A stretch of 64,000 nucleotides of DNA, taken from the NCBI GenBank assembly GCA_947591495.1, contig CANQDG010000004.1, positions 5,358 to 69,357 on the forward strand. Reading direction: 5' to 3'. Under the pieces are notes generated by a model. That model worked only from the letters and a program-made list of their open reading frames with translations. It did not search any database and had not been told where the DNA came from. The position numbers and the translations under genes are program-made. Positions 1,427-62,128 of this stretch are shown here, in pieces. The number at the start of each line of letters is the position of its first letter. Positions within the stretch are counted from its first letter, which is position 1. This DNA comes from an uncultured Bacilli bacterium (GTDB taxonomy: Bacteria; Bacillota_I; Bacilli_A; ML615J-28; CAG-313).

Positions 1427-3318
1427 ATATATCTAAAACATTATTTAAAAATCTCACTAGGTGTCCAAGTTTTATGGGACTTTATGATTTATATCTTAAC
1501 CGCACCTTTAATGAGGTTAAAACAATTGATGGCAAAAAGATTAATCAAGAATTGTTAGATGACATTCTAAACTTAGATGATAATTTATTTAATGAAGAAC
1601 AAGAAAAATTGCAAGAATTACTTTATCAAATGTTTGATGATAGTGATGGTCATGACTTATTAGAACAAACTAATCCTCAAATGGAAGCCTTTAAAGATGT
1701 TTATAAAGAAGTTGAAATGCTTGCTGCAGAGCATGTTGAGGCTTTACTTGGAAAAAGTGTTCAGTTTTCAGATGATACCCATCAACAAAAGAAATTTTCT
1801 TATCGCTTAAATGGTAATGAATTTTATTGCTATTTAGATATCTATTATGAAGATGAAAAAAGCATTAAAGTTTTTGAAGTAAAAACAACAACTTCTTCTA
1901 AATTTGATGATCTTCATATTACGAAGAATAAGCAAACAAGGCCGCTTTTTATAAAAAAAGAAGACCACATCTTTCATCTAAATAAAACAATTGAGCCTAG
2001 TTTATTACAAAATAAATTAAATAAAATAGCAGATCGCTATGGTAAGGTTGGTAAATATATATATGATATTGCTATTCAAAGACATATTATTGAAAATAGT
2101 ATGGAAAATGCAGGCAAAAATGTAGACAAAAAGGTAGAATATTACTTAGTCGTACTTGATGCTAAATATCGCTTTAGTGGTAAATATGATGAAAACAATC
2201 AACCTCTTTATTTACCAGATCAAGATGGTAATGAACTATTCAATGTTTATGATGTAACAGAGTTAACGACACCTTATCAAGAACAAATTTTAAATGAACG
2301 CACTCTTCTTTTTGAGTGGCAGGAAAACTTGGCAATTAAAACGAATGTTTTAGGAAAACATTGTCAATATAAAGAAACTACTCAGTGTAAATTTTGCCCT
2401 GTATGTATGAAAAAGGTTTTAAAAGATGGTTCAATTTTGGAATATTTAGATAAACATCGGGCCTTTTTTGTGCAAAATGAAAAAGGACGTGATAAAAGGG
2501 TTGATGTTTATGATTTGATTAATCAAGGTCTTACCACGATTCCAGATGCCAAACCATATCTACGCAAGCCTAATAATCTTATGCAATGTGATACTTATGA
2601 AAATAATTATATATATATCAATAAGCCACAAATTGAGGCTTCTTTAGCAAATATTTCGTATCCAATTTATTATTTAGATTTTGAAAGTTACAATTCACCA
2701 CTTCCACGATTTTTCCAAGAGTCACCTTATATGCAATCTTTATTTCAATATTCTTTACATGTTGAGAAGGCTAAAAATCAGTGTGATTTAGTAAAAGATC
2801 ACAAAGAGTTCCTTGCGAAAGATCATTTAGACCATCGTGAAGAATTAATCAAACAATTAATTGAAGATATTGATTTAAGTCAAGGGGGAACGGTTATTGT
2901 TTATAATAAATCATTTGAACAAACGCGTTTAAAAGAACTTGCAAGAATATTTCCAAAATATCAAGAAGCTCTATATAATATTCATGATCATATTTATGAT
3001 TTATTAGATTCTTTAAAAGGTAAAGCCGATCAAGTAGAAGACAAAGATACACAACCAACCTTTAATTATTATCATCCATTACTTCATGGTTCCTTTTCTA
3101 TTAAGAAAGTTTTACCGCTTTTTAGTGATTTATCATATCAAAATTTAGAAGTTAAAAATGGTACTGAGGCGATTGTAACATATGGTATGTTACCTTATTT
3201 AACCGAACAAGAATATAAAGAAAAATATTTAGCATTAAGCGTTTATTGTAGGCAAGATACTTGGGCGATGGTTGAAATATTAAGAGGCCTTTACGAGTTA
3301 ATAAAAAACCCTAATTAG
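1423..3318 (+). CDS. DUF2779-type protein: Cas4/AddB-like Fe-S PD-(D/E)XK nuclease domain fused to a DEDD-type exonuclease-like domain
   Basis: Motifs: TRCPSF, DIYYEDEKSIKVFEVKTT, CQYKETTQCKFCPVC, then YYLDFES, VYNKSFEQTRL and CRQDTWAM. Confidence 0.8.
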   Translation: MNISKTLFKNLTRCPSFMGLYDLYLNRTFNEVKTIDGKKINQELLDDILNLDDNLFNEEQEKLQELLYQMFDDSDGHDLLEQTNPQMEAFKDVYKEVEMLAAEHVEALLGKSVQFSDDTHQQKKFSYRLNGNEFYCYLDIYYEDEKSIKVFEVKTTTSSKFDDLHITKNKQTRPLFIKKEDHIFHLNKTIEPSLLQNKLNKIADRYGKVGKYIYDIAIQRHIIENSMENAGKNVDKKVEYYLVVLDAKYRFSGKYDENNQPLYLPDQDGNELFNVYDVTELTTPYQEQILNERTLLFEWQENLAIKTNVLGKHCQYKETTQCKFCPVCMKKVLKDGSILEYLDKHRAFFVQNEKGRDKRVDVYDLINQGLTTIPDAKPYLRKPNNLMQCDTYENNYIYINKPQIEASLANISYPIYYLDFESYNSPLPRFFQESPYMQSLFQYSLHVEKAKNQCDLVKDHKEFLAKDHLDHREELIKQLIEDIDLSQGGTVIVYNKSFEQTRLKELARIFPKYQEALYNIHDHIYDLLDSLKGKADQVEDKDTQPTFNYYHPLLHGSFSIKKVLPLFSDLSYQNLEVKNGTEAIVTYGMLPYLTEQEYKEKYLALSVYCRQDTWAMVEILRGLYELIKNPN

Positions 3319-3332
3319 TTTTAGGGTTTTTT
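3303..3332. terminator. Bidirectional terminator between convergent genes
   Basis: Stem aaaaccctaa (3305-3314) / ttagggtttt (3321-3330), flanked by A and T runs. Confidence 0.6.
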
Positions 3333-3338
3333 ATGCTA

Positions 3339-4640
3339 TTAGAAAAGAAAAATAGCTTCTAAATCATAGGCTAACGCCTTAATAATTTTCACTTTTTGAA
3401 TGCTTCCTATCGTAATTTTGTCATCATAAGAAGTATTAACATATATATAACCATCAACATCATCAGGTGCATAAGCAAAACTTCGAACGACGTAACATCC
3501 ATGATAGTCATCATAACGATCAACTAAAACACTATAAGTTTTTCCAACTTCTTTTTGATTAAGTTCATAAGATATTTGTAGTTGCAAACGCATTAAAATA
3601 TCTTTTCGCTTTTCCATAACATTTTGATCTACTTTAGGATACATTAAGAATCCCTTTGTATCTTCTTCATCAGAATAAGTAAAAATACCTAAATGATTAA
3701 ATTTAATAGTTTTAACAAAATCAACTAATTCTAAAAAGTCCTCATCATCTTCAGTAGGAAAGCCCACCATTAAAGTTGTTCTAATTGTCGCATCAGGAAT
3801 TTCATGCCTTATTTTATTAAATAAATCTACTAAAAAGGCTTTACTTCCTCTTCTTGCCATATTAGTTAAAATCTTATCACTGGCATGTTGAATTGGTATA
3901 TCAAAATACTTAGCAACGCGCTGATTATTTTTGATTTCCGCAATCAATCCATCAGTAATTTCATCGGGATATAAATAAAGCACCCGAATTACTTTAATGC
4001 CATCTAGCATACTGATACTTCTTAATAAGTCTTCTAAACGTTTACCTTCATTTAAATCAGTTCCATAACGGGTAGTATCTTGTCCTATTAAAGTAATCTC
4101 TTTGACGTTTTGTTTGATTAGCGTTTTAGCTTCTTCAATGATTTTTTCAAAAGGTCGACTTCTAAATGGTCCTCTAATTAAAGGAATAGCACAATAATTA
4201 CAACGATTATTACATCCTTCAGAAATTCGTAAGTAAGCAGTATGAGAAGGGGTTGCAATTAAGCGATTGTTGTAATCCATTTTATATGAATAATTGGTAT
4301 TTAATATTTTTTGAAACAATTCATCTATATGACTATAATCTTTAATGGGAAAATAGATATCAACCTCAGGGATACTTTGTTTTAAATCTTCTAAATATCG
4401 TTCAACTAAACATCCCATCGCAATAATAATTTTTTTACCCTTATTCTTTGTAACATCTAAAATGGTATCAATAGCTTCTTTTTTGGCACTTTCAATAAAT
4501 CCACAAGTATTGACTACAATAATATCAGCTTGGGATAAATTAGTCGTGATAGTTAGATTGTATTTTTGGGCTACTCCTAAAAATAATTCTGAATCAATTA
4601 GATTTTTAGCACAACCCAAAGAAATCATTCCTAATTTCAT
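3339..4640 (-). CDS. rimO: Ribosomal protein S12 methylthiotransferase (MiaB/RimO radical-SAM family)
   Basis: N-terminal ISLGCAKNLIDSE, radical-SAM CNNRCNYCAIP, C-terminal TRAM-like segment; 433 aa. Confidence 0.85.
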   Translation of the reverse strand: MKLGMISLGCAKNLIDSELFLGVAQKYNLTITTNLSQADIIVVNTCGFIESAKKEAIDTILDVTKNKGKKIIIAMGCLVERYLEDLKQSIPEVDIYFPIKDYSHIDELFQKILNTNYSYKMDYNNRLIATPSHTAYLRISEGCNNRCNYCAIPLIRGPFRSRPFEKIIEEAKTLIKQNVKEITLIGQDTTRYGTDLNEGKRLEDLLRSISMLDGIKVIRVLYLYPDEITDGLIAEIKNNQRVAKYFDIPIQHASDKILTNMARRGSKAFLVDLFNKIRHEIPDATIRTTLMVGFPTEDDEDFLELVDFVKTIKFNHLGIFTYSDEEDTKGFLMYPKVDQNVMEKRKDILMRLQLQISYELNQKEVGKTYSVLVDRYDDYHGCYVVRSFAYAPDDVDGYIYVNTSYDDKITIGSIQKVKIIKALAYDLEAIFLF

Positions 4641-4784
4641 TTTGGACTCCTTTATTTTATATATATATTAACATTATACAACAAAGACATAAATTTTTCA
4701 AATTTATTAGGTTTAATTTTTGACCTTTATAAGTTTTTTTGTTATAATATATATATCTTAAATAATTTAGAAAGAAGGAATAAA

Positions 4785-5360
4785 ATGGCTAAAGAATTTA
4801 TTGTTGAAACATCTGCTCGTCATGTGCACCTAACAGAAGCCGATTTTAAAGCTTTATTTGGAACTGATGCAACCCTTACAGTGAAAAAGTATTTATCACA
4901 ACCTGGACAATTCGCTGCCGAAGAGCGAGTTAGTATTGTTGGCCCTAAAAAAGAAATTGCTAATGTATCAATTTTAGGTCCTTTTAGAAAAGCCTCTCAA
5001 GTTGAGCTTTCCGCAACCGATGCAAGAAGTATTGGTGTTCCCATTGTTATTAGAGAATCAGGTGATTTAGAAAACACCCCTGGATGTAAAATTGTTGGTC
5101 CAATTGGTAGCATTGAACTAAAGGAAGGGGTAATCGTGGCTAAACGTCATATTCATGCTACTGAAGCTGATGCTAAAGAACTTCAAGTTAAAGATAAAGA
5201 TATCGTTAAAGTTGAAGTTAACACGCCTGAAAGATCATTAATTTTTGGTGATGTAGTTGTAAGAGTTAGTAATACTTATGCGCTTGCTATGCATATTGAT
5301 ACGGATGAATCAAACGCTGCTGGTATGGTGCCAAATGTAATGGGAAAAATTGTTAAATAA
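4785..5360 (+). CDS. pduL: Phosphate acyltransferase PduL
   Basis: Duplicated PduL signatures SARHVHLTEADFKALFG and AKRHIHATEADA. Consensus promoter TTGACC-17-TATAAT lies upstream. Confidence 0.85.
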   Translation: MAKEFIVETSARHVHLTEADFKALFGTDATLTVKKYLSQPGQFAAEERVSIVGPKKEIANVSILGPFRKASQVELSATDARSIGVPIVIRESGDLENTPGCKIVGPIGSIELKEGVIVAKRHIHATEADAKELQVKDKDIVKVEVNTPERSLIFGDVVVRVSNTYALAMHIDTDESNAAGMVPNVMGKIVK

Positions 5361-5496
5361 AAAAACTAAAAAACTATAAAAGATGCTTAAGGAAAATATC
5401 AAAATCCTTAAAGCATCTTTTATTTTTCGTTATATGTGCAAAAAAAAACAAAATAGTGTATAATTATAGATAATTAAAAATATCACGAAAGGATCT

Positions 5497-5733
5497 ATGA
5501 TCAAAATGATTTGCCCTAACTGTCATAATGAAAATCGATATGATGCGTTAACTTGTGATTTTTGCATGGCTAAACTACCCATGACAACCAAGCGTCAAAA
5601 AGAAATTAAACAAAGACAAAAATTAGAAAAGAAAAATAAACTTAGTAAATCAATTACAAAACTATTAGGATTATTACTAGGACTTGTAGTCATTATTTTA
5701 ATTATTGTAGTTGTTTATTTAATAAGGAAGTAA
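5497..5733 (+). CDS. Zinc-ribbon membrane protein
   Basis: CPNC...CDFC zinc ribbon followed by a C-terminal hydrophobic helix. The stop is 3 nt before mnmG. Confidence 0.55.
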   Translation: MIKMICPNCHNENRYDALTCDFCMAKLPMTTKRQKEIKQRQKLEKKNKLSKSITKLLGLLLGLVVIILIIVVVYLIRK

Positions 5734-11680: not shown

Positions 11681-11795
11681 AATAATTTATAATATTTTTT
11701 TGTTATAATGATTTAATATAGTGTATTTTTCTTGCTGGACTTTTTAAGTTGTTTATGATAGAATATATATGATTTATACTATTATGAGGTAGAGT

Positions 11796-12503
11796 ATGGA
11801 AGATCAATTTACAAGATTTAAGTATTTAATAGGTGATGATAAACTTCAACTTTTAAAACAAAAAAGCATTGCGGTATTTGGCCTTGGTGGCGTTGGTGGC
11901 AATGTATGTGATGCACTAGTTAGAAGTGGAATTGGAAGAGTTGATTTATTTGATTGTGATAAAGTAACAATTACTAATCTTAACAGACAACTTATTGCAA
12001 CCTCTAAGACAATTGGACTTGATAAAGTAGATGTAATGAAAGAACATCTTTTAAGTATTAATGATCAAGTAGTTATTAATGTTAATAAAACCTTTTTACT
12101 TCCTGATAATATTGATATAATTGATTTTTCCGTATATGATTATGTTGTTGATGCAATCGATACAATTAGCACTAAGATTGCTATTATTACAAAGTGTGAT
12201 CAAGAAGGGATTAAAATTATTTCCTCAATGGGTACAGGTAATAAATTAAATCCATTAGATTTAGAAGTTAGTGATATATATCAAACATCAGTTTGTCCAC
12301 TTGCAAAAGTTATGCGTTATGAATTAAAAAAAAGAGGGATTAAACATTTAAAAGTAGTTTATTCTAAAGAGTTACCCATTAAGGTTCATATCATGAATGA
12401 AAATAATAAAGCTATATGTGGTAGTAGTGCTTTTGTACCAAGTGTAGCAGGAATAATCATCGCAAGTGAAATTGTTAAAGATTTAATAAAAGATATTAAT
12501 TAG
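11796..12503 (+). CDS. tcdA: tRNA threonylcarbamoyladenosine dehydratase (ThiF/TcdA family)
   Basis: VFGLGGVGGNVCDALVRSGIGRVDLFDCDKVTITNLNRQ Rossmann/adenylation motif; 235 aa. Confidence 0.8.
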   Translation: MEDQFTRFKYLIGDDKLQLLKQKSIAVFGLGGVGGNVCDALVRSGIGRVDLFDCDKVTITNLNRQLIATSKTIGLDKVDVMKEHLLSINDQVVINVNKTFLLPDNIDIIDFSVYDYVVDAIDTISTKIAIITKCDQEGIKIISSMGTGNKLNPLDLEVSDIYQTSVCPLAKVMRYELKKRGIKHLKVVYSKELPIKVHIMNENNKAICGSSAFVPSVAGIIIASEIVKDLIKDIN

Positions 12504-50707: not shown

Positions 50708-52129
50708 ATGCTTGGTGATAAAATCAAACTATTAAGGCTTCAAAACCAAAAAACTCTTGAAGAAATGGCCCAACTTCTTGATGTAGATTTAAAAACAATG
50801 CAAGATTTTGAAGATAATATTCGTCCATTAAATAAAGAACAATTAAAAAAAATTAGCACAACTTTTAATATAACTGTTGATGAACTATTAGAAAGCCAAA
50901 ACGATGCTAAAAAATTTCCTAATTATGCTAAAACAATCTATAACAAAGAAAGCCTTCAAATTATTGAAAAAATTAATTATCACACGCGATTAAAAATTAT
51001 AGGATATATCTTTTCTTTGATAATCTTTATAGTGCTTTTACTTATACATGAAAACTTTCTTTTAAGCTTAGTAGAGTGTTTATGCTATTTTGGCTTAGCT
51101 TTCTTGGCATGTTATTTATGTAGTTTAATGCTTTTAAAAAAAGCAGTTAATATATATAAAGGTAGTTGTGAATTTTACTTTTATTTAGATCACTTCATCA
51201 TTGAAACTAATACTAATAAAGGTTTTACTAAATATCAAAGATTATATAGTAGTATTAGTAAAATGATTGAAATGGATAAATTTATTATCATTTATTTTGA
51301 TAATCAGATAGCTATAATCGATAAAACGAGCTTTTTATATGATCCGCTTCCAATAATTTTAAAAATGAAAGAAGAGGCAAGAGAATATCAATTACGTTCG
51401 AAAAATAAAAAAACTAAATCACAAAACTTTTTTAAAACCCATTTTATTAATGCGATGGCTATTTTATCAGTGGTAAGCTTTTTTCTAGGTATAATTCTTA
51501 TTAAATTTATCAAGAATCCGTTCTTATTTAGCACTAATCTTTGGGCTATAAAGAATCTTTGGGTTTTATATTTCTTGTTACCTATTGACCTTATTGCAAT
51601 TATTTTAGGAATAATTTATAAAAGAAAACGCAATATTGTCATAGGATCTATAATGAGTGCTTTATTAATCTTAGTTGGAACATTTCCGTTTATATTTAAA
51701 AACACTTATAGCTTTACAACTAAACCAATTGAAACGATGGAAAAAATAACTAAAATGGATTATTCAGATATCTGTTTTACCATCACTAAAATTAACGAAG
51801 TAAACACTCAAAAAGAAGTTTTTCCATTAGAAACAACCAAAAGAAGTGAAATTACCTATTTAAAATATAGCCAAGCCGAAGAAATGAAAATTGAAAAGAA
51901 TTTAGCATCTAGTAACATTTGGTCTTCCACAAATGATAAAGCCTATTTATTAGACCAAACAATGAGAATGCAACTTCAAGATTATGATTATTGGTTATTC
52001 TATGATTTAACTAATGAAAGTTTTACGATTAGTTTAGATGATGATAATATTAATCTAAAAGATTATATGATTGCATCATATGATCTTCAAACTAATACTT
52101 TTGTAATAATTAATTATTTTGCAAAATAG
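50708..52129 (+). CDS. XRE-family HTH fused to a multi-pass membrane region
   Basis: N-terminal LGDKIKLLRLQNQKTLEEMAQLLDV HTH followed by several hydrophobic helices. Confidence 0.7.
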   Translation: MLGDKIKLLRLQNQKTLEEMAQLLDVDLKTMQDFEDNIRPLNKEQLKKISTTFNITVDELLESQNDAKKFPNYAKTIYNKESLQIIEKINYHTRLKIIGYIFSLIIFIVLLLIHENFLLSLVECLCYFGLAFLACYLCSLMLLKKAVNIYKGSCEFYFYLDHFIIETNTNKGFTKYQRLYSSISKMIEMDKFIIIYFDNQIAIIDKTSFLYDPLPIILKMKEEAREYQLRSKNKKTKSQNFFKTHFINAMAILSVVSFFLGIILIKFIKNPFLFSTNLWAIKNLWVLYFLLPIDLIAIILGIIYKRKRNIVIGSIMSALLILVGTFPFIFKNTYSFTTKPIETMEKITKMDYSDICFTITKINEVNTQKEVFPLETTKRSEITYLKYSQAEEMKIEKNLASSNIWSSTNDKAYLLDQTMRMQLQDYDYWLFYDLTNESFTISLDDDNINLKDYMIASYDLQTNTFVIINYFAK

Positions 52130-52819: not shown

Positions 52820-54112
52820 ATGATTGAAAGAAAACAGTATCTTGATAAATTAATTAGAAAAAAAGAAAACGGACTAGTCAAAATTATCACTGGAATAAGA
52901 AGATGTGGTAAGTCCTATTTACTATTTAATATTTATTATGATTATTTGAAGTCGATAGGTGTAGACGATAAGCATATTATAACATTAGCCTTAGATGAAA
53001 ATCAAAATGCAAAATATAGAAATCCCCTTCATTTAGATGAATATATTCAAAGCAAACTTCAAGATGATAAAATGCATTATGTATTTCTTGATGAAATTCA
53101 AAAAGTTAAATCAGTAAAAAATCCATATTTAGAAGATGAAGAAGAAAAAATAGGCTTTGTTGACGTTTTACTTGGATTAATGAAAAAACCTAATGTTGAT
53201 CTTTATGTTACAGGTAGTAATTCTAAAATGTTGTCTTCTGATATTTTAACAGAATTTAGAGGAAGAGGGGACGAAATAAGAGTAAATCCATTGTCTTATA
53301 AAGAATTTTATGATGCTTATAAAAAAGATAAACATCTTGCATGGCAGGAGTATTTTACTTATGGCGGAATGCCATTTATTATGTCATTAGAAACTCATGA
53401 GGATAAAAGAAATTATTTAACAAATTTATTTGAACAAGTGTATTTATCTGACATATTAGAAAGACATCACCTTCAAAATGATAAAAGAATTTTAGAAGAT
53501 TTGTTAAATATAATTTCTTCTTCGGTTGGATCTTTAACAAACCCTACTAAGCTGTCAAATACTTTTTTATCTGTAAAACACATTAATATCAAAAATACCA
53601 CGATAAGTAATTACTTAGATTATTTTATTGATGCTTTTATGATTTTTAAAGCCCAAAGATATGATATTAAAGGAAAGAAGTATATAGAAACTCCTTTAAA
53701 ATATTATTTTTCAGATATTGGGCTTAGAAATGCTAGATTAAATTTTAGACAACAAGAAGAAACCCATATTATGGAAAACATCATTTATAATGAGTTGTTA
53801 ATAAGAGGTTTTAGTGTTGATGTCGGAATTGTAGAATATAATTTTAAATCTTCTAAGGGAATAAGTAAAAAAACACAATTAGAGGTTGATTTTATTGCTA
53901 ATAAAGGTAGCAATAGATACTATATTCAATCTGCTTTCGCTATCCCTACAGAAGATAAAAGAAAACAAGAAACTAAAGTATTTTCACGCATTAATGATTC
54001 ATTTAAAAAAATTGTCGTTGTTAAGGAAAATATTATTCCTTGGCATGATGAAAATGGAATATTGTATGTAGGTGTAGAGCAATTTTTATTAGAAGATTTT
54101 TTACATGATTAG
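52820..54112 (+). CDS. AAA+ ATPase with DUF4143-type C-terminus, paralog 2 (divergent)
   Basis: Walker A GIRRCGKS and Walker B VFLDEIQ. Promoter TTGACA-17-TATAAT at about 52737-52765. Confidence 0.85.
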   Translation: MIERKQYLDKLIRKKENGLVKIITGIRRCGKSYLLFNIYYDYLKSIGVDDKHIITLALDENQNAKYRNPLHLDEYIQSKLQDDKMHYVFLDEIQKVKSVKNPYLEDEEEKIGFVDVLLGLMKKPNVDLYVTGSNSKMLSSDILTEFRGRGDEIRVNPLSYKEFYDAYKKDKHLAWQEYFTYGGMPFIMSLETHEDKRNYLTNLFEQVYLSDILERHHLQNDKRILEDLLNIISSSVGSLTNPTKLSNTFLSVKHINIKNTTISNYLDYFIDAFMIFKAQRYDIKGKKYIETPLKYYFSDIGLRNARLNFRQQEETHIMENIIYNELLIRGFSVDVGIVEYNFKSSKGISKKTQLEVDFIANKGSNRYYIQSAFAIPTEDKRKQETKVFSRINDSFKKIVVVKENIIPWHDENGILYVGVEQFLLEDFLHD

Positions 54113-54294: not shown

Positions 54295-55614
54295 TTAAAT
54301 AAACATAGCAAGAAAATGAGGAATACTAAATTTCTTATCTTTCATCCCTATGTTGCCACTAATTAACTTCATAGCAATAGATGGTGAAAATTCTTTTATA
54401 AAAAAGTCAAGAGATTTGGTTGCTGAATTACCTGCCTTAACTTCAATTGGAATAACTTCGGCATTTTTTTCAATAATAAATTCAAGTTCAGAATTATCAT
54501 TTGGTTTATAATAATGAAGGGTATAACCATTTTTGACAAGCGTTTCAGCGATGAAGTTTTCATATATACCACCTTTAGCAAATCCCTTTAATGTTCCATT
54601 AAGTAACGCTTGCTTTGTGGCAAAGCCAAATAATGCAAGTAAAAGTCCTGTATCTGCTATATAAAGTTTGAATTCATTGCTTTTTTCATAAGCATTAAGT
54701 GGCAAAATAGGTGTCGTAGTATTATAGCAGATATAAGCCATATTGGCATCGTGTAACCACTGCACACTATCCATAAATTTACGAGCCGTAGCTTTTTTTT
54801 CAATTTCAGAATATTTGAATTTTTTATTTTCTTTAGCTAGTTGACGTGGAATACTTTCATAACACTTACGAACCTTTAATTTTTCGGCACCTTTAGCGTG
54901 TTGAGAAATATCGTCTATGTAAGATATTAAGATTTTATCTTGAATTTCTTGCACTTTAGTGAAATCTTTGAATTCCATAAAATTGGCAACTACTTCCGGC
55001 ATTCCACCTACTACAAGATATTCACGAAGTAGCATTTCAAATTTTTCATTGATTTCAGGTGGTATCTTTTCTTTTGATGTATAAAAACTTTTAAGATAAG
55101 CAATCGTTTCATCACTATAGCCATATGCCCATAAAAATTCTTCAAAATCCATAGAATACATCATAGCAGTCTTTTCGTAACCAACTGGAATTGATTCAAC
55201 CGGTTTAACTTCCTTATCATCGTCATCACCATAAGATAAACCAAGAAGTGAACCCGAAGCAATCACATCATAACGGCCATCTTCGGCGAGAAACTTTAAT
55301 GATGTGCGAGCATCAGCACATTTTTGAATTTCATCAAGGAATATAAGAGTTTTGCCAGGGATTAGTTTTACCCCAGGAATATTGGCAGTCAATCTTTTAT
55401 ATATTTCTTCAGCAGTCTTGTTACCACTAAAGATAATCTTTAGACTTTTTTGTTCATGGAAGTTAATTTCCACAAAACTTTCATATTCCCTTTTACCAAA
55501 TTCTCGGATTAAATATGTCTTACCTACTTGTCTTGCACCCTTTACTAAAAGACATTCTTTTTTATCTTTATTTTTCCATGCAAGCAAAGTATCATACATT
55601 TTTCTTTTTAACAT
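54295..55614 (-). CDS. AAA+ ATPase with DUF4143-type C-terminus, paralog 3
   Basis: Walker A GARQVGKT and Walker B IFLDEIQ. 439 aa; close paralog of 19866..21185. Confidence 0.85.
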   Translation of the reverse strand: MLKRKMYDTLLAWKNKDKKECLLVKGARQVGKTYLIREFGKREYESFVEINFHEQKSLKIIFSGNKTAEEIYKRLTANIPGVKLIPGKTLIFLDEIQKCADARTSLKFLAEDGRYDVIASGSLLGLSYGDDDDKEVKPVESIPVGYEKTAMMYSMDFEEFLWAYGYSDETIAYLKSFYTSKEKIPPEINEKFEMLLREYLVVGGMPEVVANFMEFKDFTKVQEIQDKILISYIDDISQHAKGAEKLKVRKCYESIPRQLAKENKKFKYSEIEKKATARKFMDSVQWLHDANMAYICYNTTTPILPLNAYEKSNEFKLYIADTGLLLALFGFATKQALLNGTLKGFAKGGIYENFIAETLVKNGYTLHYYKPNDNSELEFIIEKNAEVIPIEVKAGNSATKSLDFFIKEFSPSIAMKLISGNIGMKDKKFSIPHFLAMFI

Positions 55615-55638
55615 GATATTACCTCATTTCTTGAACTT

Positions 55639-55667
55639 ATTATAGCATAGTATTACCGCCTTTTCAA
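55639..55667 (-). promoter_or_regulatory. Promoter of ATPase paralog 3
   Basis: Minus strand TTGAAA (55667-55662), 17-nt spacer, TATAAT (55644-55639). Confidence 0.6.
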
Positions 55668-55759
55668 AAAATATGCATATTTTGGCATATTGAAAAATTG
55701 AAATTATGCATATTTTAGGATATTAAAAAATGAAAAATATGCATATTTTTGGTTTATAT
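55661..55759. repeat. 3 x 33-bp tandem repeat centred on the palindrome (a/t)tatgcatat
   Basis: ATGCAT centres at 55673, 55706 and 55739, exactly 33 bp apart. Units are ttttcaaaaaatatgcatattttggcatattga / aaaattgaaattatgcatattttaggatattaa / aaaatgaaaaatatgcatatttttggtttatat. Confidence 0.85.
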
Positions 55760-55844
55760 ACAATTTTGATAGTATAAAACGAGATTGATTAATTATCAAA
55801 TTGTTTAAAAAAAAATAAAAATATAAGAATCTAATTATTTTAAT

Positions 55845-55892
55845 AGAGTTGTTAAATACCTATTTTTATATGGTAGTAAACAACTCTTTTTT
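55845..55892 (+). terminator. Orphan plus-strand terminator-like hairpin
   Basis: Stem agagttgtt (55845-55853) / aacaactct (55879-55887), then TTTTT. No annotated plus-strand gene lies upstream. Confidence 0.4.
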
Positions 55893-56142
55893 ATTATCCC
55901 GATAAAATTGATAAAAAAATAACTTTCTTCTTATAAGCCATTATTTTTCCTCTTTTTTAATAATAAAAAATTTAATTATCACCAATTTTCGACATAATTT
56001 TAATCATTAAATTTGGTAATGTTGCTAAAAGACGACATTTTATTGAAAAAAATGATATAATTAGACGAATTTTAATATCTTTTTAAACGTTAATATTTAA
56101 TTAAGATTAAAAAAAAATAGAGAAATTAAAAAAGGAGGTAGT

Positions 56143-56778
56143 ATGATGGACTTTACACAATTTGTAGAGAAAATAAAATCAAAATATAAAAAGGATGAAT
56201 TAAAGATCTTTAATGCAATTGAATGTTTTGATAAACTTCATTTATCTTCTTTAGGTTCAAATGATAGTGAGGGATATCAAGTTTTTACTCCACAATTCAT
56301 TGTTAAACAAATGACGGAATTGGTAGAAAACGATATTCTTGATTTTACCAAAAATGTTCTTGAGCCAACCTCAGGTGATGGAGCATTTACAACCTATATT
56401 TTTCAAAAAAGGCTTGAAACAATTTCTAGCAATTTTGAGATTGAGTCACTTAAAGCTCTTTCGACTATTTATTCTATAGAAATGGATAAAGAACTTATTA
56501 TTAAACAAAGAAGTAATATTTTTACATTAATTAGTCTCTATCTAAAAAAACAAAAAATTGAAGTTGATAAATCCTACTTTGATATGGTGAAGTGTATTAT
56601 TGTTTCAAACTTTATGTGGGCAATGTTTAATTCAGACAATTCAATGGAAGGAATGATTAAAGAAGTTGCGTATAAAATGCCAAATGCTGAAAAGAAAGAT
56701 TATATATCTTTAGAGTTTCCCGTTTGGGAGATATCTGAAAATAACATTACTATGCATAAGGAGTATTTCGAAATATGA
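56143..56778 (+). CDS. Methyltransferase-like protein with an intact SAM-binding loop and no NPPY catalytic motif
   Basis: VFTPQFIVKQM (motif X), VLEPTSGDGAF (motif I) and YSIEMD (motif II/III-like). No (N/D/S)PP(Y/F/W) motif anywhere. A second ATG at 56146 is spaced better from GGAGG. Confidence 0.75.
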   Translation: MMDFTQFVEKIKSKYKKDELKIFNAIECFDKLHLSSLGSNDSEGYQVFTPQFIVKQMTELVENDILDFTKNVLEPTSGDGAFTTYIFQKRLETISSNFEIESLKALSTIYSIEMDKELIIKQRSNIFTLISLYLKKQKIEVDKSYFDMVKCIIVSNFMWAMFNSDNSMEGMIKEVAYKMPNAEKKDYISLEFPVWEISENNITMHKEYFEI

Positions 56779-58541
56779 TAGAAGAAAAGAAAAATGAAGC
56801 ACTAGATGCAGAAAATGAATACAGAACAGCAGTTGAAGAAGCATACGACTACGTTGAAAATTTTGATATTTTAGAAACAATTACAAATGTTGGTAATGAT
56901 GAAGTTTTTACGCCTAGAAAAACAGTCGATATGATGCTGAATTGCTTGCCTGAAGAAGTTTGGCACAATCCTAATTATAAATGGTTTAATCCTGCAACTA
57001 AAAATGGCGTTTTTGAACGTGAAATTGCAATTAGATTAGATAAAGGATTGGAAGATATAATTCCAAATATAGAACAAAGAAAAAAACATATTCTTCAAAA
57101 TATGATTTATTCATTAGGTCAAACAAAATTCACTTCAAATGTTGCAAGAAGAACAGTTTATTATTGTTCAGATGCTAATAGAAAATGTGATGGATTAAAA
57201 GCACCAGATGGTCATTATGTTAATGGATATGCCATTGGAAATGGAACATGGTTTAATAATAAAGAGGGGAACATAAAAACACCAAATACAAATCATACAT
57301 TTGTTGATGACAAAGATAGAATAATGTCTGAATCGAATATAGGTGATGAAAGAAAAAAATACAAATGTAAGTATTGTGGTATATCGGGTGCTTCAAAATA
57401 TAACGATAAAAATCAAAGAGAAACCTATGCGTATGAATTTATTCATGTTGATCAGTTAAATTTACAAAGTTATTTACAAAATAGATTTTTTGGAGGAGAT
57501 AAAACTATGAAATTTGATATTATTATTGGAAATCCGCCATATCAATTAAGTGATGGGGGAGCACAAGCATCTGCAAAACCCATATATAATTTATTTATCG
57601 AGCAAGCAAAATTTCTTAACCCAAAATATCTTTGTATGATTATTCCATCACGTTGGATGATTGGTGGAAAAGGACTTGATGATTTTAGAGAAAATATGAT
57701 AAATGATAAAAGATTTAGAGAGTTGCATGATTTTATTAATCCTAAAACTTGTTTTCCAAATAATGACATTAAAGGAGGAGTATGTTATTTTTTATGGGAT
57801 AAAGATTATGATGGAATGTGTAACATTTATACATATACTTCTAATGAAGTAAGAAAAAGTATCCGTTATTTAAAAGAGGAAGGCATAGATATTTTCATAA
57901 GAGATGAAATACTAATTAATATTATGAAGAAAGTTATGGCATGTAGTGAAGATACATTCGACAGCATTGTTTCTGCACGAAAACCATATGGTTTAGAAGC
58001 AGAAACAATGCTGTCAGCATCAAAATATGGATTACCAGAATTTTCGACTGAAAAAATTGCTGATGGATATGAAATTTTAGGATTAGGTGAAAAAATGAAA
58101 AGAGTTTGGAAATACTTACCTTTAAATTATCCTATTCCTAAAAAAAGCCCGTGTTTATTTAAATTTAAAGTTTTTATTGCTGAAGCTTACGGATGTGGTG
58201 CAATTGGCGAAATACCTAGCACGCCAGTGCTAAGCACGCCAAGACAACTTTGCACAGAAACTTTTTTAGAAATTGGTCCTTTTGATACACGTTTAGAGGC
58301 AGAAAATGTTATTAAATATATAAAGACAAAATTTTTTAGAGCATTAGTTGGAATTCAAAAACAAACTCAGCATACCACACAAAAAGTATATCGTTTTGTT
58401 CCTATCTTAGATTTTAGTTCAAATAAATCAATAGATTGGAGTCAGCCAATTAGTAATATTGATAAGCAACTATTTTCAAAGTATAAACTTTCTAATGAAG
58501 AAATTGAATTTATTGAAAAGCATATTCAGGAGATGAATTAA
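56775..58541 (+). CDS. N6-adenine DNA methyltransferase (Eco57I/TaqI-like gamma class) with a C-terminal specificity-like region
   Basis: VFTPRKTVDMM (motif X), degenerate motif I FNPATKNGVF and motif IV IIIGNPPYQ. ATGA overlap with the previous gene. Confidence 0.8.
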   Translation: MIEEKKNEALDAENEYRTAVEEAYDYVENFDILETITNVGNDEVFTPRKTVDMMLNCLPEEVWHNPNYKWFNPATKNGVFEREIAIRLDKGLEDIIPNIEQRKKHILQNMIYSLGQTKFTSNVARRTVYYCSDANRKCDGLKAPDGHYVNGYAIGNGTWFNNKEGNIKTPNTNHTFVDDKDRIMSESNIGDERKKYKCKYCGISGASKYNDKNQRETYAYEFIHVDQLNLQSYLQNRFFGGDKTMKFDIIIGNPPYQLSDGGAQASAKPIYNLFIEQAKFLNPKYLCMIIPSRWMIGGKGLDDFRENMINDKRFRELHDFINPKTCFPNNDIKGGVCYFLWDKDYDGMCNIYTYTSNEVRKSIRYLKEEGIDIFIRDEILINIMKKVMACSEDTFDSIVSARKPYGLEAETMLSASKYGLPEFSTEKIADGYEILGLGEKMKRVWKYLPLNYPIPKKSPCLFKFKVFIAEAYGCGAIGEIPSTPVLSTPRQLCTETFLEIGPFDTRLEAENVIKYIKTKFFRALVGIQKQTQHTTQKVYRFVPILDFSSNKSIDWSQPISNIDKQLFSKYKLSNEEIEFIEKHIQEMN

Positions 58542-58542
58542 T

Positions 58543-61500
58543 ATGAGTGAGATAGTAGTAAAAAAATCTACTGATATTAATCAATTTGATTCGGCAAAAT
58601 ACAAAGGACAGCCTAAGACATTTCATCTAGATGATATAAATGATACTAACCAAGATCTTATTCTTTTATATATGTATATTCTTCCTAAATTTCAAAGTCA
58701 TGGAATTAAGGTAGGCATGACAAAATGCAAAATGGATGAAACCTTTTGGCATGCTATTAAATCAAGAATTAGGAATCAACAACATGAACTTGCTTTAACT
58801 CAAGAACAATATCCTAAATATGGGCTCGAAAGAGAAGTGATTTATTGGGGCGTATGTCTTGATGCACAGAGTGAATCATTCAAAGATTATAGAGTTCATG
58901 ATCAAATTCTTACTATGAAAGCAGGACTTACCGAAAAAGAACAAGAATGGTTTCAAAATCTTCCAGCTGATGAATTAGTAGAAGTTTTCGAAGAATGTAG
59001 AAAAGATGATTCAAACAATGAAATATATATACCTAGAAAAGAACAAAGAGAATGTGTTGATGCTCTAATAGATTATTTTAAGAATCATAAGACTGGTGGA
59101 CGTTTTCTTCTTAATTGCAAAATGCGTTATGGAAAATCGTTTACAACTTATAAATATTGTGAAGAAGCTGATTTAAATAAGATATTAATTCTTACATTTA
59201 TTCCTGCCGTTGAGTCTTCTTGGCGAGAGGATTTAACTCATATAAAAAAACATTATGATTATTATACAGATGATAATTTGAAAAAAGATAGTTTTATGCT
59301 TAATTGGATTACTGATCCATATGTTTTGTTTTTATCGTTACAGAATTATTTAGGTAAAGATAGAAATTCGAGTGAAACAAAAGCTAAAATTAAGCAATTG
59401 CAAGATGTTGAATGGGATTTGGTTATTTTAGATGAGTATCATTTTGGAGCGTGGAATGAAAAAACACAAGGAACACTAGAAAGTCAAGAAGATCTTGATA
59501 AGGAATATCAATCTGAACTTAAAAAAACAAATGATGTTTTAGATAGATTTAAAATTAAAACTAAACAAACTATTTGTCTTTCGGGAACTCCTTTCAAAGC
59601 TATCGCAAAAGGTGAGTTTACTAAAGAAAATACATTTACATATTCATATTTTGAGGAACAAAGAAATAAATATCCAAAAAGTGACGAAGGCGATTTTAAA
59701 ACAGTAAATCCTGATTATGCTCATTTTCCTGATATGAAAATTTTTGGCTACAATATGACTAGACTTTTTACTAATATGACTGCTTCAGTGTTTTCTGGCG
59801 ATGCATTATACGGAAAGAAGTATTTTTCTTTAAATAAATTTTTTGAAACAAGAAAAGATTCAAATCCTAATGAGCCTTGCGTTTTTGTGTATGAAGAAGA
59901 AATCAAAAAATGGTTAAACATTATTAAAGGACAATCTACATTTGGTAATAAATTTCCTTATTCAAATCAAGACATGCTTGATAATAATAAACATACTTTA
60001 TGGCTTTTGCCAAGGGTTAATGCTGTGCATGCAATGGCTAAACTTTTAGAGAAAGATGATTATTTTAAAAAATATCAAATTATTAATCTTTCCAAAGATG
60101 GCGTTGGTGCAGGAGTAGATGCTTATGAATATTTAAACGAACAAATAACGGTGGCCAATAATACAAATAAAATTGGTTCGATTGCTCTTACAGTGAATAA
60201 ATTGACAATAGGTGTAACTGTTAAACAATGGTTTAGCGTATTTGTGCTTAAGGATTTAGCTTCACCAGAACAATATTTTCAATCCATATTTAGAATTCAA
60301 ACACCTTATAAAGAAAAAGGGAAAATATTAAAATTTAATGGTTTTGTATATGATTTTAACATTGATAGAGCTGCCGCGTTGCTTTTAAAATATGCAGAAC
60401 AATCTGAAGAAGGTAGTGTAACGAAACTTCAAATAGCCAAGCTTATTGTAAAATATATACCTATTTTTGTTAATGGAGATATGTCACAACCAATTAGTGC
60501 GGATGTATTTTATGAACTTGCTGAATTCGGTGATACTACTGGTATACCACTTTCTAGAAAGATTACAGATACAACTAAAACTACAAGAATGCTTGATGAT
60601 GATGTCATAGCTTCAATGCTTAATGATGATGATGTCAGCGATATAATCAAGAGAGTTTTTGCACATGCTAAATTCAACAAACCTAAAAGTCAAACAATGA
60701 CTCAAAAACCAGATATAGATGGATTTCAGACCAAAATTGCTAAAGCCGGACGTGATAAGGGATATGAACTTGGTATGCAAGATTATGAACGATATGTTGA
60801 TTATGACAATACTGAAATTCAAATAGCTTTTGAAAAAGCAATAGCGGATTATATAAGTAAATTATGTCCTAAAGACTATGATCAAAATAATGCAACATGG
60901 TGGTCTAATGGATTTATCAAAGGATACGAAAGCGGCGTGAATGCTCCAATTAAAAAAATTAATTGTGGCCATGATGATGGTATTAAATTTGTTGATGAAA
61001 TCAAAAAAAGATTTGGTCAAAACATTGTTTGGAAAGAAGATAACAAAAAGATGATAATTGATTTTATTCATAAACATCTAAATGTTACTGAAAATATTCC
61101 TCAAGAATATAGAGGCGCATTGTATAGAAGATGGTATTCGGATTCCTTTAAGCGTGCTATCAGAAATGAATTATCACCTAAAATTCCTTATGAAAAAGGT
61201 AAATCAGTAGAAGATGCGGACAATGTTATGAAACATATATTAGCACGGTTATTTGAATTCTTATATATAAGTGTTTACCGCGAAACTACGTTTCAAGAAA
61301 TCTTTAACAACGCTGATTCAAATCTCTTTTTAGAAGCTGTAGGTATTACAAAGCAGGATTTTGAAGTGCTTAATAAGTATCACGTATTTCAAGAAAATGT
61401 TTTAAATAATTATATCCATCAGTTTTTTGTCAATGAGTCATTAGGTTCTAAACTAAATTTAGAAGATGAAGAAGTAAAAAAGCAATATAGGAATAGTTTC

Positions 61501-61794
61501 GATTGGTTTGGATTTGGACTTGATAGTGAAATTGAACCAGAAACAATGGTTACTGATAATGCTCAATACTTAGTCAACGAGATAAGCTATCAAGAAAATG
61601 AAATCAATGAAAAAAATATTGAGATTTCTAATTTAGATAGAATTAAAGAAATTTTAAATAACGAAAAACGAGGAATGAAAGCAGGCAAAATAGCTGATTT
61701 ACTTGATATGACAAAAAAAGAAGTAAATAAAATTCTTTATGCTAATAAAGAAATATTTGTTTCTGATTTCTTTAATAATTGGAAATTAAGATAA
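58543..61794 (+). CDS. T5orf172 (GIY-YIG-like) domain fused to an SF2 DExH helicase, a large C-terminal region and a terminal wHTH
   Basis: N-terminus: LLYMYILP...GIKVGMT...SRIRNQ...YRVHDQIL...EQEWFQNL. Helicase: MRYGKSFT (I), ILDEYH (II), LSGTPFK (III), QSIFRIQTP (VI). C-terminal end: IKEILNNEKRGMKAGKIADLLDMTKKEVNKILY. Confidence 0.8.
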   Translation: MSEIVVKKSTDINQFDSAKYKGQPKTFHLDDINDTNQDLILLYMYILPKFQSHGIKVGMTKCKMDETFWHAIKSRIRNQQHELALTQEQYPKYGLEREVIYWGVCLDAQSESFKDYRVHDQILTMKAGLTEKEQEWFQNLPADELVEVFEECRKDDSNNEIYIPRKEQRECVDALIDYFKNHKTGGRFLLNCKMRYGKSFTTYKYCEEADLNKILILTFIPAVESSWREDLTHIKKHYDYYTDDNLKKDSFMLNWITDPYVLFLSLQNYLGKDRNSSETKAKIKQLQDVEWDLVILDEYHFGAWNEKTQGTLESQEDLDKEYQSELKKTNDVLDRFKIKTKQTICLSGTPFKAIAKGEFTKENTFTYSYFEEQRNKYPKSDEGDFKTVNPDYAHFPDMKIFGYNMTRLFTNMTASVFSGDALYGKKYFSLNKFFETRKDSNPNEPCVFVYEEEIKKWLNIIKGQSTFGNKFPYSNQDMLDNNKHTLWLLPRVNAVHAMAKLLEKDDYFKKYQIINLSKDGVGAGVDAYEYLNEQITVANNTNKIGSIALTVNKLTIGVTVKQWFSVFVLKDLASPEQYFQSIFRIQTPYKEKGKILKFNGFVYDFNIDRAAALLLKYAEQSEEGSVTKLQIAKLIVKYIPIFVNGDMSQPISADVFYELAEFGDTTGIPLSRKITDTTKTTRMLDDDVIASMLNDDDVSDIIKRVFAHAKFNKPKSQTMTQKPDIDGFQTKIAKAGRDKGYELGMQDYERYVDYDNTEIQIAFEKAIADYISKLCPKDYDQNNATWWSNGFIKGYESGVNAPIKKINCGHDDGIKFVDEIKKRFGQNIVWKEDNKKMIIDFIHKHLNVTENIPQEYRGALYRRWYSDSFKRAIRNELSPKIPYEKGKSVEDADNVMKHILARLFEFLYISVYRETTFQEIFNNADSNLFLEAVGITKQDFEVLNKYHVFQENVLNNYIHQFFVNESLGSKLNLEDEEVKKQYRNSFDWFGFGLDSEIEPETMVTDNAQYLVNEISYQENEINEKNIEISNLDRIKEILNNEKRGMKAGKIADLLDMTKKEVNKILYANKEIFVSDFFNNWKLR

Positions 61795-61832
61795 AAAGGT
61801 TATACTAGTATATATAATATTGAAAAAAATTA

Positions 61833-61877
61833 GATCTTAAAAGAATGCTTTTATAGTAATCTTTTAGGATCTTTTTT
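61833..61877 (+). terminator. Terminator of the methyltransferase/helicase operon
   Basis: Stem gatcttaaaag (61833-61843) / cttttaggatc (61861-61871) with one G-U pair, then TTTTTT. Confidence 0.6.
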
Positions 61878-62128
61878 ATTGCTTAAATTAAGATAGCATT
61901 AAAAAATGAAGGCTGTTTTTTAATGAATTTATATATATATGAATAATTTACCTATTGAATTTTTAAACTAAAAATAAATATAAAAAAATCAAAAAATAAT
62001 AAGTAAGCGTTTTCTAGCACAAAAAGTATATAAATTTTAAAGTTATATTATATAATTTTTATAAGCTTTTGAAAGATAAGGGTAGCAAAAAATCTTTATT
62101 GATCAAAAGAAAACAAAGGAGGAAAAAA

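Follow-up and report, generated by a model that had tools for sequence, protein, structure and literature searches.

The window analysed here is a 64,000-nucleotide stretch from an uncultured Bacilli bacterium of the GTDB lineage CAG-313 (contig CANQDG010000004.1 of assembly GCA_947591495.1, positions 5,358 to 69,357 of the forward strand). Near its end lies an operon of three genes, here called A, B and C, which we consider reasonably likely to encode a split Type ISP-like (single-polypeptide Type I-like) restriction-modification system, ATP-dependent, methylation-based and distributed over three proteins. Gene A encodes a truncated methyltransferase-like protein, gene B a predicted N6-adenine DNA methyltransferase, and gene C a large protein that joins a T5orf172-like (GIY-YIG-like) N-terminus to a superfamily 2 (SF2) motor. 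The Type ISP-like reading is favoured because the order of domains in natural fusions of C and B is that of Type ISP enzymes and because the motor of C is predicted to fold like theirs.

The three genes keep company over large evolutionary distances. In a scan of one genome per species, at least 593 matches to C were obtained, from Actinomycetota, Pseudomonadota, Bacillota, Bacteroidota, Fibrobacterota, Spirochaetota, Chloroflexota, Cyanobacteriota, Verrucomicrobiota, Acidobacteriota and others, and a relative is present in one Heimdallarchaeota bin. A word-indexed search returned more than 4000 homologs of C, and a further search gave 1488 cluster representatives at 50% identity (E up to 0.001). 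The A-B-C order on one strand is found in 53 of the 54 best loci with at least 3.3 kb of upstream sequence, where the median lengths are 217 (A), 533 (B) and 851 (C) amino acids (aa) and the commonest junction is a 4-nt overlap. The same set is carried by a Rhizobium phaseoli plasmid, on which the products are labelled 'N-6 DNA methylase', 'Eco57I restriction-modification methylase domain-containing protein' and 'GIY-YIG nuclease family protein'. Relatives occur in 81 plasmid records, many of them small mobilisable plasmids, and were confirmed on at least 23 IMG/VR contigs. A protein identical to C is on record from metagenome contigs with the same gene order.

Plasmids of Bacillus cereus and Lactiplantibacillus plantarum encode C and B as one fused protein of 1417–1437 aa, with A as a separate gene upstream. 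The fused proteins are arranged in the order T5orf172, helicase, post-helicase domain, methyltransferase and recognition region. Judged by sequence, A, B and C form one functional unit. The first-pass annotation of the window had described a restriction-modification-like cluster of three genes resembling a Type ISP enzyme split across polypeptides; both descriptions are upheld by homology, by a gene order conserved across phyla and by C-B fusions with the domain order of Type ISP.

Fused helicase-methyltransferase relatives were also seen in giant viruses and phages, with Foldseek matches to BFVD entries A0A1V0SG34 (Hokovirus) and A0A6J5KT33 (uncultured phage) at E 3e-21 to 6e-19. Two gut phage records, MT835565 and PV036449, matched in tblastn at 29% identity over residues 42–712.

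Domain organisation of the three proteins

ResIII (PF04851) is the sole Pfam match of C, at 25.1 bits against a cut-off of 22.5; direct scans of C returned nothing from NCBIfam and nothing from PHROGs. The motor also matches positions 160–601 of the PADLOC profile PDLC03626 (E 7.7e-34). Across 70 relatives, motifs I, II, III and VI show no variation at K198, D297, E298, H300, G348, T349, Q580 and R584. These data substantiate the SF2 motor of the first-pass annotation. Its motif I (MRYGKSFT), regarded there as unusual, is normal for the family, since K193, M194, G197 and K198 are invariant in the same 70 proteins. In an AlphaFold2 (AF2) model of C (mean predicted local distance difference test score, pLDDT, 79), the motor is mostly above 90. 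A Foldseek search of the PDB matched it to Chd1, ISWI, INO80, LlaBIII (4xqk, E 9.5e-10), XPB, RadD and ZorD, with a probability of 1.00 for the Snf2, XPB and Type ISP motors. The modelled motor folds like double-stranded DNA translocases, including Snf2 remodelers and the Type ISP enzyme LlaBIII.

The N-terminus of C was assigned to a divergent T5orf172-like domain because its relatives match PF10544, because a profile-profile alignment links them, and because the Tyr/Arg/Glu residues are kept. The N-termini tested were those of aligned C relatives at ∼25–35% identity; 46 of 50 match PF10544 (best E 4.4e-12) and 34 of 50 match MUG113. Aligned by hhalign, the N-termini of the window's own clade and those of the PF10544-matching relatives gave a probability of 98.3% (E 1.7e-14, 102 columns). 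Two positions, Y43 and K56, never vary, and four others (G58, R75, D115 and E135) reach at least 90% conservation; Y43, R75 and E135 correspond to the Tyr/Arg/Glu pattern of GIY-YIG-type nucleases. A relative of C with 31% identity is labelled 'GIY-YIG nuclease family protein' in RefSeq. T5orf172 domains are active nucleases in the phage ICP1 and in phage-inducible chromosomal island-like elements (PLE). Searched against the PDB, the profile of the N-terminal domain gave chance matches only, and neither an Mrr nor a PD-(D/E)XK nuclease was detected in C with Pfam or PADLOC. The N-terminus was also considered as a swappable module; this was ruled out, as variation is seen in the C-terminal tail and the N-terminus stays constant.

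B matches the full Eco57I profile of Pfam (PF07669, positions 1–171) over residues 109–327, with E 1.1e-30 and 107.5 bits (cut-off 25.3); the Pfam scan gave Eco57I only and no MmeI_* family. The PADLOC profile MTase_II (PDLC03375) matches residues 242–587 (E 9e-69), and B also matches positions 1001–1359 of REase_MTase_IIG (PDLC03626; E 4.4e-57). An alignment with 8 relatives of different phyla, including Alphaproteobacteria, Bacteroidota and Bacillota, showed invariance of motif X (DEVFTP, residues 42–47), of P73, K76, G78 and F80 in motif I, and of the NPPY motif N253-P254-P255-Y256. Past the catalytic core, residues ∼400–500 are variable between conserved flanks, the pattern expected of a target-recognition region. 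The order of motif X (FTP), motif I and motif IV (NPPY), with the recognition region C-terminal, is the gamma-class N6-adenine arrangement. Its motifs mark B as a complete member of the Eco57I family, predicted from sequence to be an N6-adenine DNA methyltransferase of the gamma class. The NPPY adenine methyltransferase and the long specificity-like C-terminal region, both proposed at first pass, are in agreement with these results. Single-sequence and profile searches (phmmer, hmmsearch) of PDB sequences returned no relative of B or C.

Five further residues of B are invariant between motifs III and IV, namely C131, H174, C198, C201 and H224 (residues 131–224; 57165–57446). This Cys/His cluster looks like a zinc site.

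A probably is a conserved, truncated paralog of the methyltransferase fold that likely binds S-adenosylmethionine (AdoMet), and it appears to have no catalytic methyltransferase role. It weakly matches the N-terminal parts of methyltransferase profiles in PADLOC, PHROGs and NCBIfam. Its close homologs (n = 255) are all 210–229 aa long. A profile search with A gave at least 8000 matches; the best 120 of them are ∼210–260 aa, except for one apparent A-B fusion of 418 aa, and many of the matches listed carry a partial PF20473 (MmeI_Mtase) or PF02384 (N6_Mtase) and are named 'N-6 DNA methylase'. Among 59–62 aligned relatives, F48, T49, L73, E74, P75, G78, G80, F82, Y110 and N156 are invariant, and E113 in motif II is at least 90% conserved. 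The catalytic motif IV, (D/N/S)PP(Y/F/W), is absent from A and from every one of these relatives; N156 is the sole invariant Asn at its place, and the protein ends 55 residues further on. The AF2 model of A (pLDDT 85.9, predicted template modelling score 0.86) gave partial, weak Foldseek matches at E 0.01–0.1, every one to an AdoMet-dependent methyltransferase; its structural neighbours, all as partial matches, are CamA, BsaXI, MmeI, LlaGI, DrdV, BrxX and HsdM. The first-pass description of the product as methyltransferase-like is right as to AdoMet motifs X, I and II and probably as to the fold, but does not extend to a working methyltransferase because motif IV is missing. A was also considered as a broken-off, frameshifted N-terminus of B. 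This was ruled out because B has its own motifs X and I and because A is a stable family of ∼215 aa present in 53 of the 54 loci.

At two related loci, where C is 72% identical, A is replaced by a homologous longer variant of 328–330 aa (L001, 5118–6307; L006, 5344–6336). In L001, a 67-aa gene of the HTH_3/MqsA-antitoxin-like kind lies directly upstream of A and resembles the controller protein of a restriction system. The 418-aa protein (P0391, on a 1.3-kb contig) is a single open reading frame (ORF), A-like over residues 6–175 and similar to the N-terminal half of a B-like methyltransferase over residues 227–410; it reflects either natural fusion of A and B or an artefactual frameshift where the two genes usually overlap by 4 nt.

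The first-pass annotation had left ∼450 aa of C unassigned. This region is now divided into a family-wide post-helicase domain, split in two by a helical insertion specific to the window's clade, and an acidic linker; it stays unassigned insofar as the profile of the post-helicase domain has no relative in Pfam or the PDB. In the second part of the domain, Y908, E914, F929, F961 and E965 are at least 90% conserved. In the C-B fusion proteins the domain sits between the helicase and the methyltransferase. The model is of low confidence in the insertion region (pLDDT 40–60 over residues 710–800) and in the linker (pLDDT below 50 over residues 967–1016).

Some close relatives of C (P0023, P0024, P0030, P0033 and P0035) carry a GGACT/gamma-glutamyl cyclotransferase-like domain (PF06094) between the linker and the tail. 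A C relative with the PF06094 insertion is encoded at locus L005 (8001–11786), where a stand-alone T5orf172 gene (11783–12463) follows directly after C and a second ResIII paralog (2520–5615) precedes A.

The C-terminal tail, first described as a segment resembling a winged helix-turn-helix, is indeed a winged helix, and its profile refines it to a Zalpha-like one. Searched against the PDB, the tail profile matched the Zalpha domains of ADAR1 (E 4e-5 to 9e-5) and ZBP1 (1.3e-4), and also PKZ, ORF112, E3L and I73R (overall E 4e-5 to 3e-2). Of 27 homologous tails, 22 match Pfam z-alpha (PF02295) with E values no higher than 1 (best 2.8e-6); the window's own tail scores 16.5 bits, under the 21-bit cut-off. 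As in these Zalpha domains, the tail keeps a K-K-x-x-N-x-x-x-Y recognition helix and the Trp of the wing, K1058, K1059, N1062, Y1066 and W1080 being equivalent to K169, K170, N173, Y177 and W195 of ADAR1. Across the homologous tails the Lys and Trp are invariant and the Asn is at least 90% conserved. Unlike Zalpha domains, the tail lacks the two prolines of the Pro-Pro-x-Trp wing, its wing is ∼4 residues shorter, and it occurs in bacteria, where it terminates a motor protein of the restriction type. In the papers returned by a literature search on this point, bacterial folds related to Zalpha are ArsR-type, with Arg instead of Asn (PMC11293857). Among C proteins, only those of the window's own clade have the tail, and some relatives are without it.

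Comparison with known systems

A close architectural parallel is with the Type ISP enzymes LlaGI and LlaBIII. The fused relatives share with them the order of nuclease, SF2 double-stranded DNA translocase, connector, gamma-class methyltransferase and recognition domain; LlaBIII is among the best structural matches of the motor of C, and LlaGI is a weak neighbour of A. The operon differs from Type ISP in that its nuclease is T5orf172/GIY-YIG-like rather than an Mrr-type PD-(D/E)XK enzyme, in that its activities are split over C and B rather than joined in one polypeptide, and in that the methyltransferase-like subunit A without motif IV is always present as a third protein. At the sequence level, phmmer and hmmsearch against the PDB detected no similarity to Type ISP.

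The fused form is captured by the PADLOC profile REase_MTase_IIG (PDLC03626; ∼1360–1440 aa), which derives from REBASE and matches C and then B, in that order. Over their whole length, the fused plasmid proteins of B. cereus and L. plantarum can be aligned to C and B. The window's version differs from this profile in being split into two genes and in having a 150-aa insertion and the Zalpha-like tail. As far as found, PDLC03626 is a computational class and not a characterised enzyme.

With Type III systems the operon has in common a methyltransferase and a Res-type SF2 ATPase-nuclease, C passing the ResIII threshold, and probably also asymmetric sites. In Type III, however, the nuclease of Res is a C-terminal PD-(D/E)XK domain whereas C has an N-terminal T5orf172 domain; Mod is of the beta class whereas the motifs of B follow the gamma-class order and its recognition region is C-terminal; and A has no counterpart. 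As for other systems, Pfam and PADLOC scans of the operon and the flanking ORFs detected no Methylase_S or HsdR-type match (Type I) and, near the operon, no PglZ, BrxC, BrxA, BrxB or BrxL of bacteriophage exclusion (BREX); nor was there a PADLOC or Pfam match to DrmA (DUF1998 helicase), DrmB, DrmC or DrmD of the defence island system associated with restriction-modification (DISARM). Membership in Type I, Type III, BREX and DISARM was rejected on these grounds, and the operon differs from the gene sets of Types I, III and ISP, BREX and DISARM, as the first-pass annotation had maintained. PADLOC called no system beyond restriction-modification components; weak matches to ZacC and PDC-M64B were set aside.

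A published gene set similar to A-B-C is DnmA(YeeA)-YeeB-YeeC, compared here by description, a conserved operon that likewise encodes methyltransferase, helicase and T5orf172 activities. In these clusters the helicase YeeB and the GIY-YIG protein YeeC flank MmeI-like methyltransferases that have no nuclease, and a Type I-like system was proposed (Morgan et al. 2009, PMC2731913). Type ISP relatives with helicase subunits and GIY-YIG nucleases have been mentioned (Sisakova et al. 2013, PMC3553950), T5orf172 is one of the nuclease domains that have been catalogued for N6A restriction systems (Iyer et al. 2016, PMC4738411), and a table derived from Makarova 2011 pairs PF10544 with a Type III res subunit. 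The operon differs from DnmA-YeeB-YeeC in several respects. B matches Eco57I and no MmeI family in Pfam, a partial PF20473 being seen in relatives of A alone; T5orf172 is fused to the helicase N-terminus rather than encoded as a separate protein; and the methyltransferase-like genes come first and the effector last, with A as an extra subunit. Phage protection by yeeAB has been reported in Vibrio crassostreae (Piel et al., bioRxiv 10.1101/2021.05.05.442762).

The novelty of the cluster was initially overestimated: hundreds of species have the gene set, it is annotated in RefSeq and partly modelled in defence databases through the REBASE-derived PADLOC profile of the fused form, and clusters of methyltransferase, helicase and GIY-YIG/T5orf172 nuclease have been discussed, and predicted to restrict DNA, since 2009. 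A-B-C is a variant of a computationally known kind that would work like Type ISP enzymes and YeeABC, and not a new category. The new elements are the universal subunit A, the post-helicase domain and, in the window's clade, the Zalpha-like tail.

Operon layout and genomic setting

ORF calling placed all three genes on the + strand, exactly where the first-pass annotation had them, and direct reading confirmed the ATGA overlap between A and B (56775–56778) and the 1-nt gap between B and C (TAA-t-ATG, 58539–58545). The ORF of gene C is not a chance one, since 1083 codons are open in DNA of 28% GC. The ∼500 bp of AT-rich non-coding DNA described upstream is a leader of 528 bp (55615–56142; GC 0.19–0.21) without any + strand ORF of at least 20 aa lying inside it. 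A promoter-like site in this leader has 10 of 12 consensus matches and an extended −10 TG; it is a pattern match only, of a kind no more numerous in the region than in shuffles. The operon ends at a terminator, as first described: folded as RNA, 61825–61885 forms a hairpin with 17 bp and −19.6 kcal/mol ahead of a UUUUUU run, a stability that none of 200 shuffled sequences reached (z = −5.5). A simple consensus terminator scan called no terminator downstream of gene C, having missed the hairpin because its stem is AT-rich and its loop region long. The coordinates of all features are collected in Table 1.

Table 1. Features of the A-B-C operon. Positions refer to the window and residues (res) to the respective protein.
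Feature	Position	Strand	Details
Promoter-like site	56032-56061	+	ACGACA, 18 nt spacer, TG-TATAAT; consensus scan
Shine-Dalgarno AAGGAGG	56132-56138	+	direct reading; 4 nt before gene A ATG
Gene A	56143-56778	+	211 aa
Gene A motifs			motif X FTP res 48-50; motif I LEPTSGDGAF res 73-82; motif II incl. Y110, E113
Gene B	56775-58541	+	588 aa
NPPY catalytic motif IV of B	57531-57542	+	res 253-256, invariant in alignment
Gene C	58543-61794	+	1083 aa
T5orf172 (GIY-YIG-like) domain of C, putative	58657-59013	+	res 39-157; Y43, K56, G58, R75, D115, E135
SF2 ATPase/translocase core of C	59032-60402	+	res 164-620
Motor motifs of C			I KMRYGKS 193-199; II DEYH 297-300; III SGTP 347-350; VI QxxFR 580-584
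Post-helicase domain, part 1	60364-60753	+	res 608-737; family profile 3-131, i-E 1.3e-07
Clade-specific helical insertion	60754-61197	+	res 738-885; splits family-profile match; not in ~850-aa members
Post-helicase domain, part 2	61198-61440	+	res 886-966; family profile 145-225, i-E 3.1e-16
Acidic linker	61441-61605	+	res 967-1021; length varies among relatives
Zalpha-like winged-helix tail	61606-61791	+	res 1022-1083; K1058, K1059, N1062, Y1066, W1080
Intrinsic-terminator-like hairpin and T-run	61832-61880	+	38 nt past gene C stop

Directly upstream of the operon lie two paralogous ATPases with AAA_14 and DUF4143 domains (52820–54112, + strand; 54295–55614, − strand), both of which strongly match PDC-S01, a candidate defence family of PADLOC (E 1e-107 and 2e-149). 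The second of them accompanies the operon on independent metagenome contigs. The operon is further flanked by a helix-turn-helix (HTH) membrane protein and a Big_2 lipoprotein. Related loci contain Schlafen-type helicases, AAA_15/21 ATPases, a 67-aa HTH_3 gene directly before A, transposases and a resolvase; from their gene content, the neighbourhoods look like defence islands. The rest of the window is chromosomal housekeeping DNA with a flat GC content of ∼0.28. A recently acquired island was considered and rejected, as the window shows no tRNA gene, no mobility gene flanking the operon and no GC shift.

Several other elements of the region were recorded. Three head-to-tail 33-bp repeats at 55668–55766, each with the palindrome AAAATATGCATATTTT, lie next to the promoter-like site that belongs to the divergent AAA_14/DUF4143 gene, an arrangement suggestive of operators in an array. 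An inverted repeat in the AT-rich spacer (55842–55890), with 19-nt arms that are 84% complementary and T-rich sequence at and after the 3′ arm, looks like a terminator for upstream transcription. A 473-aa protein (50708–52129), with an N-terminal HTH_3 domain in Pfam and, as read from its sequence, a long, hydrophobic, membrane-like remainder, marks the boundary between the housekeeping genes and the ATPase/restriction block.

Proposed mechanism, rival explanations and significance

In the mechanism that we infer from the observed domain homologies, conserved catalytic residues, gene order and fusions, A, B and C would form a complex whose translocation and cleavage are sensitive to methylation. 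B would bind a probably asymmetric site through its variable C-terminal region, N6-methylate an adenine and so mark the host DNA. The post-helicase domain of C, which occupies the place of the coupler in the fusions, would dock on B. At unmethylated sites, the SF2 motor of C would hydrolyse ATP and translocate on double-stranded DNA, and the N-terminal T5orf172 domain would nick or cut DNA away from the site. A may serve as a non-catalytic structural or regulatory partner of B, like the inactive partner of other methyltransferase pairs. In the window's clade, C would additionally have gained the helical insertion and the Zalpha-like winged helix as a DNA-binding tail.

A number of points weigh against this mechanism. 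PF10544 has no match at E <0.1 on C itself, whether the whole protein or residues 1–165 are searched, so that the N-terminal T5orf172/GIY-YIG-like module of the first-pass annotation stands through the relatives and the hhalign alignment, and not through a Pfam match on C alone. The resemblance to Type ISP is one of fold and architecture, because profile searches link B and C to no protein of solved structure. The docking of C on B is likewise suggested by position in the fusions, the post-helicase domain being without a known relative, and the role of A as a partner of B is a guess. The literature searched contains no experimental characterisation of the A-B-C family, the YeeABC work being the only comparable one, and that work itself points partly the other way, as the dnmA-yeeB-yeeC cluster of B. 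subtilis showed no restriction or phage defence (PMC9973331).

The last result is a ground for an explanation in which the operon is chiefly epigenetic, B acting as an orphan-like methyltransferase and A and C surviving as relics or accessories that no longer restrict, as proposed for DnmA-YeeB-YeeC. Deletion of dnmA, yeeB or yeeC in B. subtilis was without effect on phage or transformation, and the authors speak of a relic (PMC9973331); the flat GC content and the lack of a tRNA gene, with no compositional sign of recent acquisition, would also fit. We nevertheless regard such a relic as unlikely. The catalytic motifs of C are intact and invariant in 70 distant relatives, 53 of 54 loci preserve the order of the three genes, and relatives are carried on plasmids and in neighbourhoods of the defence type; relics are not expected to stay so conserved. 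The same strict conservation of the operon and its catalytic residues disfavours exclusion of the BREX or DISARM kind, in which B marks self DNA and the motor of C, with a T5orf172 domain that does not cleave, blocks replication of invading DNA or remodels it uncut. B does belong to the same broad Eco57I-like methyltransferase group as PglX of BREX, BrxX is a weak neighbour of A, the motor of C is remodeler-like, and T5orf172 domains can be domesticated as DNA binders (PMC8096241), which also counts against a cutting role in the Type ISP-like mechanism. With the GIY-YIG-type residues Y43, R75 and E135 conserved, no PglZ, BrxC, BrxL, DrmA, DrmB or DrmC near the operon, and a nuclease-bearing Type ISP architecture in the fused relatives, exclusion without cleavage seems a little less probable again.

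Lower still we place a guard or abortive-infection function, whereby A and B monitor AdoMet or methylation and C is unleashed on any DNA, including that of the host, when a phage depletes AdoMet or blocks methylation. A sensor would suit a protein such as A, which has AdoMet motifs X, I and II without motif IV and is universal in the system yet without an obvious catalytic job. The idea is purely inferential, however. Neither a toxin-like nor a membrane effector is present, and the usual role of inactive methyltransferase paralogs is that of a structural partner. The least credible explanation, and a very improbable one, is that the operon serves itself or a mobile element, as a plasmid addiction module or homing-type nuclease, rather than defending the host. 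It draws on the 81 plasmid records with their many small mobilisable plasmids, on the fused forms in phages and giant viruses, and on the T5orf172 homing endonucleases of phages described in PMC10448857. Against it, addiction is known to accompany restriction-modification as a side-effect and does not stand as an alternative to it, the chromosomal copy in the window has no flanking mobility genes, and viral relatives are few among the IMG/VR contigs scanned (at least 23).

The family is among the commoner restriction-type gene sets that lack biochemistry, with at least 593 species-level matches, thousands of metagenome proteins and copies on many plasmids as well as in some phages and giant viruses. 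It could tell whether a Type ISP-like translocase can drive a GIY-YIG-type nuclease, what role a universally kept, catalytically dead methyltransferase paralog plays in a restriction complex, and how easily such enzymes split and fuse. Its description would also let defence-finding tools call the split form, which is now reported only as loose methyltransferase and helicase genes.

The most interesting points are the role of A and the presence of a Zalpha-like tail on a bacterial restriction motor. That the tail is a genuine bacterial Zalpha domain binding Z-form DNA or RNA, with A as an AdoMet-dependent licensing factor, is doubtful, though less so than any of the rival functions above. If it were true, the tail would link the motor of C to DNA that is Z-prone or negatively supercoiled, such as that behind a translocating enzyme or in invading genomes, and the window's clade would represent a prokaryotic immune system that shares a sensor of nucleic-acid conformation with ZBP1 and ADAR1. 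A functional tail would extend Z-nucleic-acid sensing to bacterial immunity.

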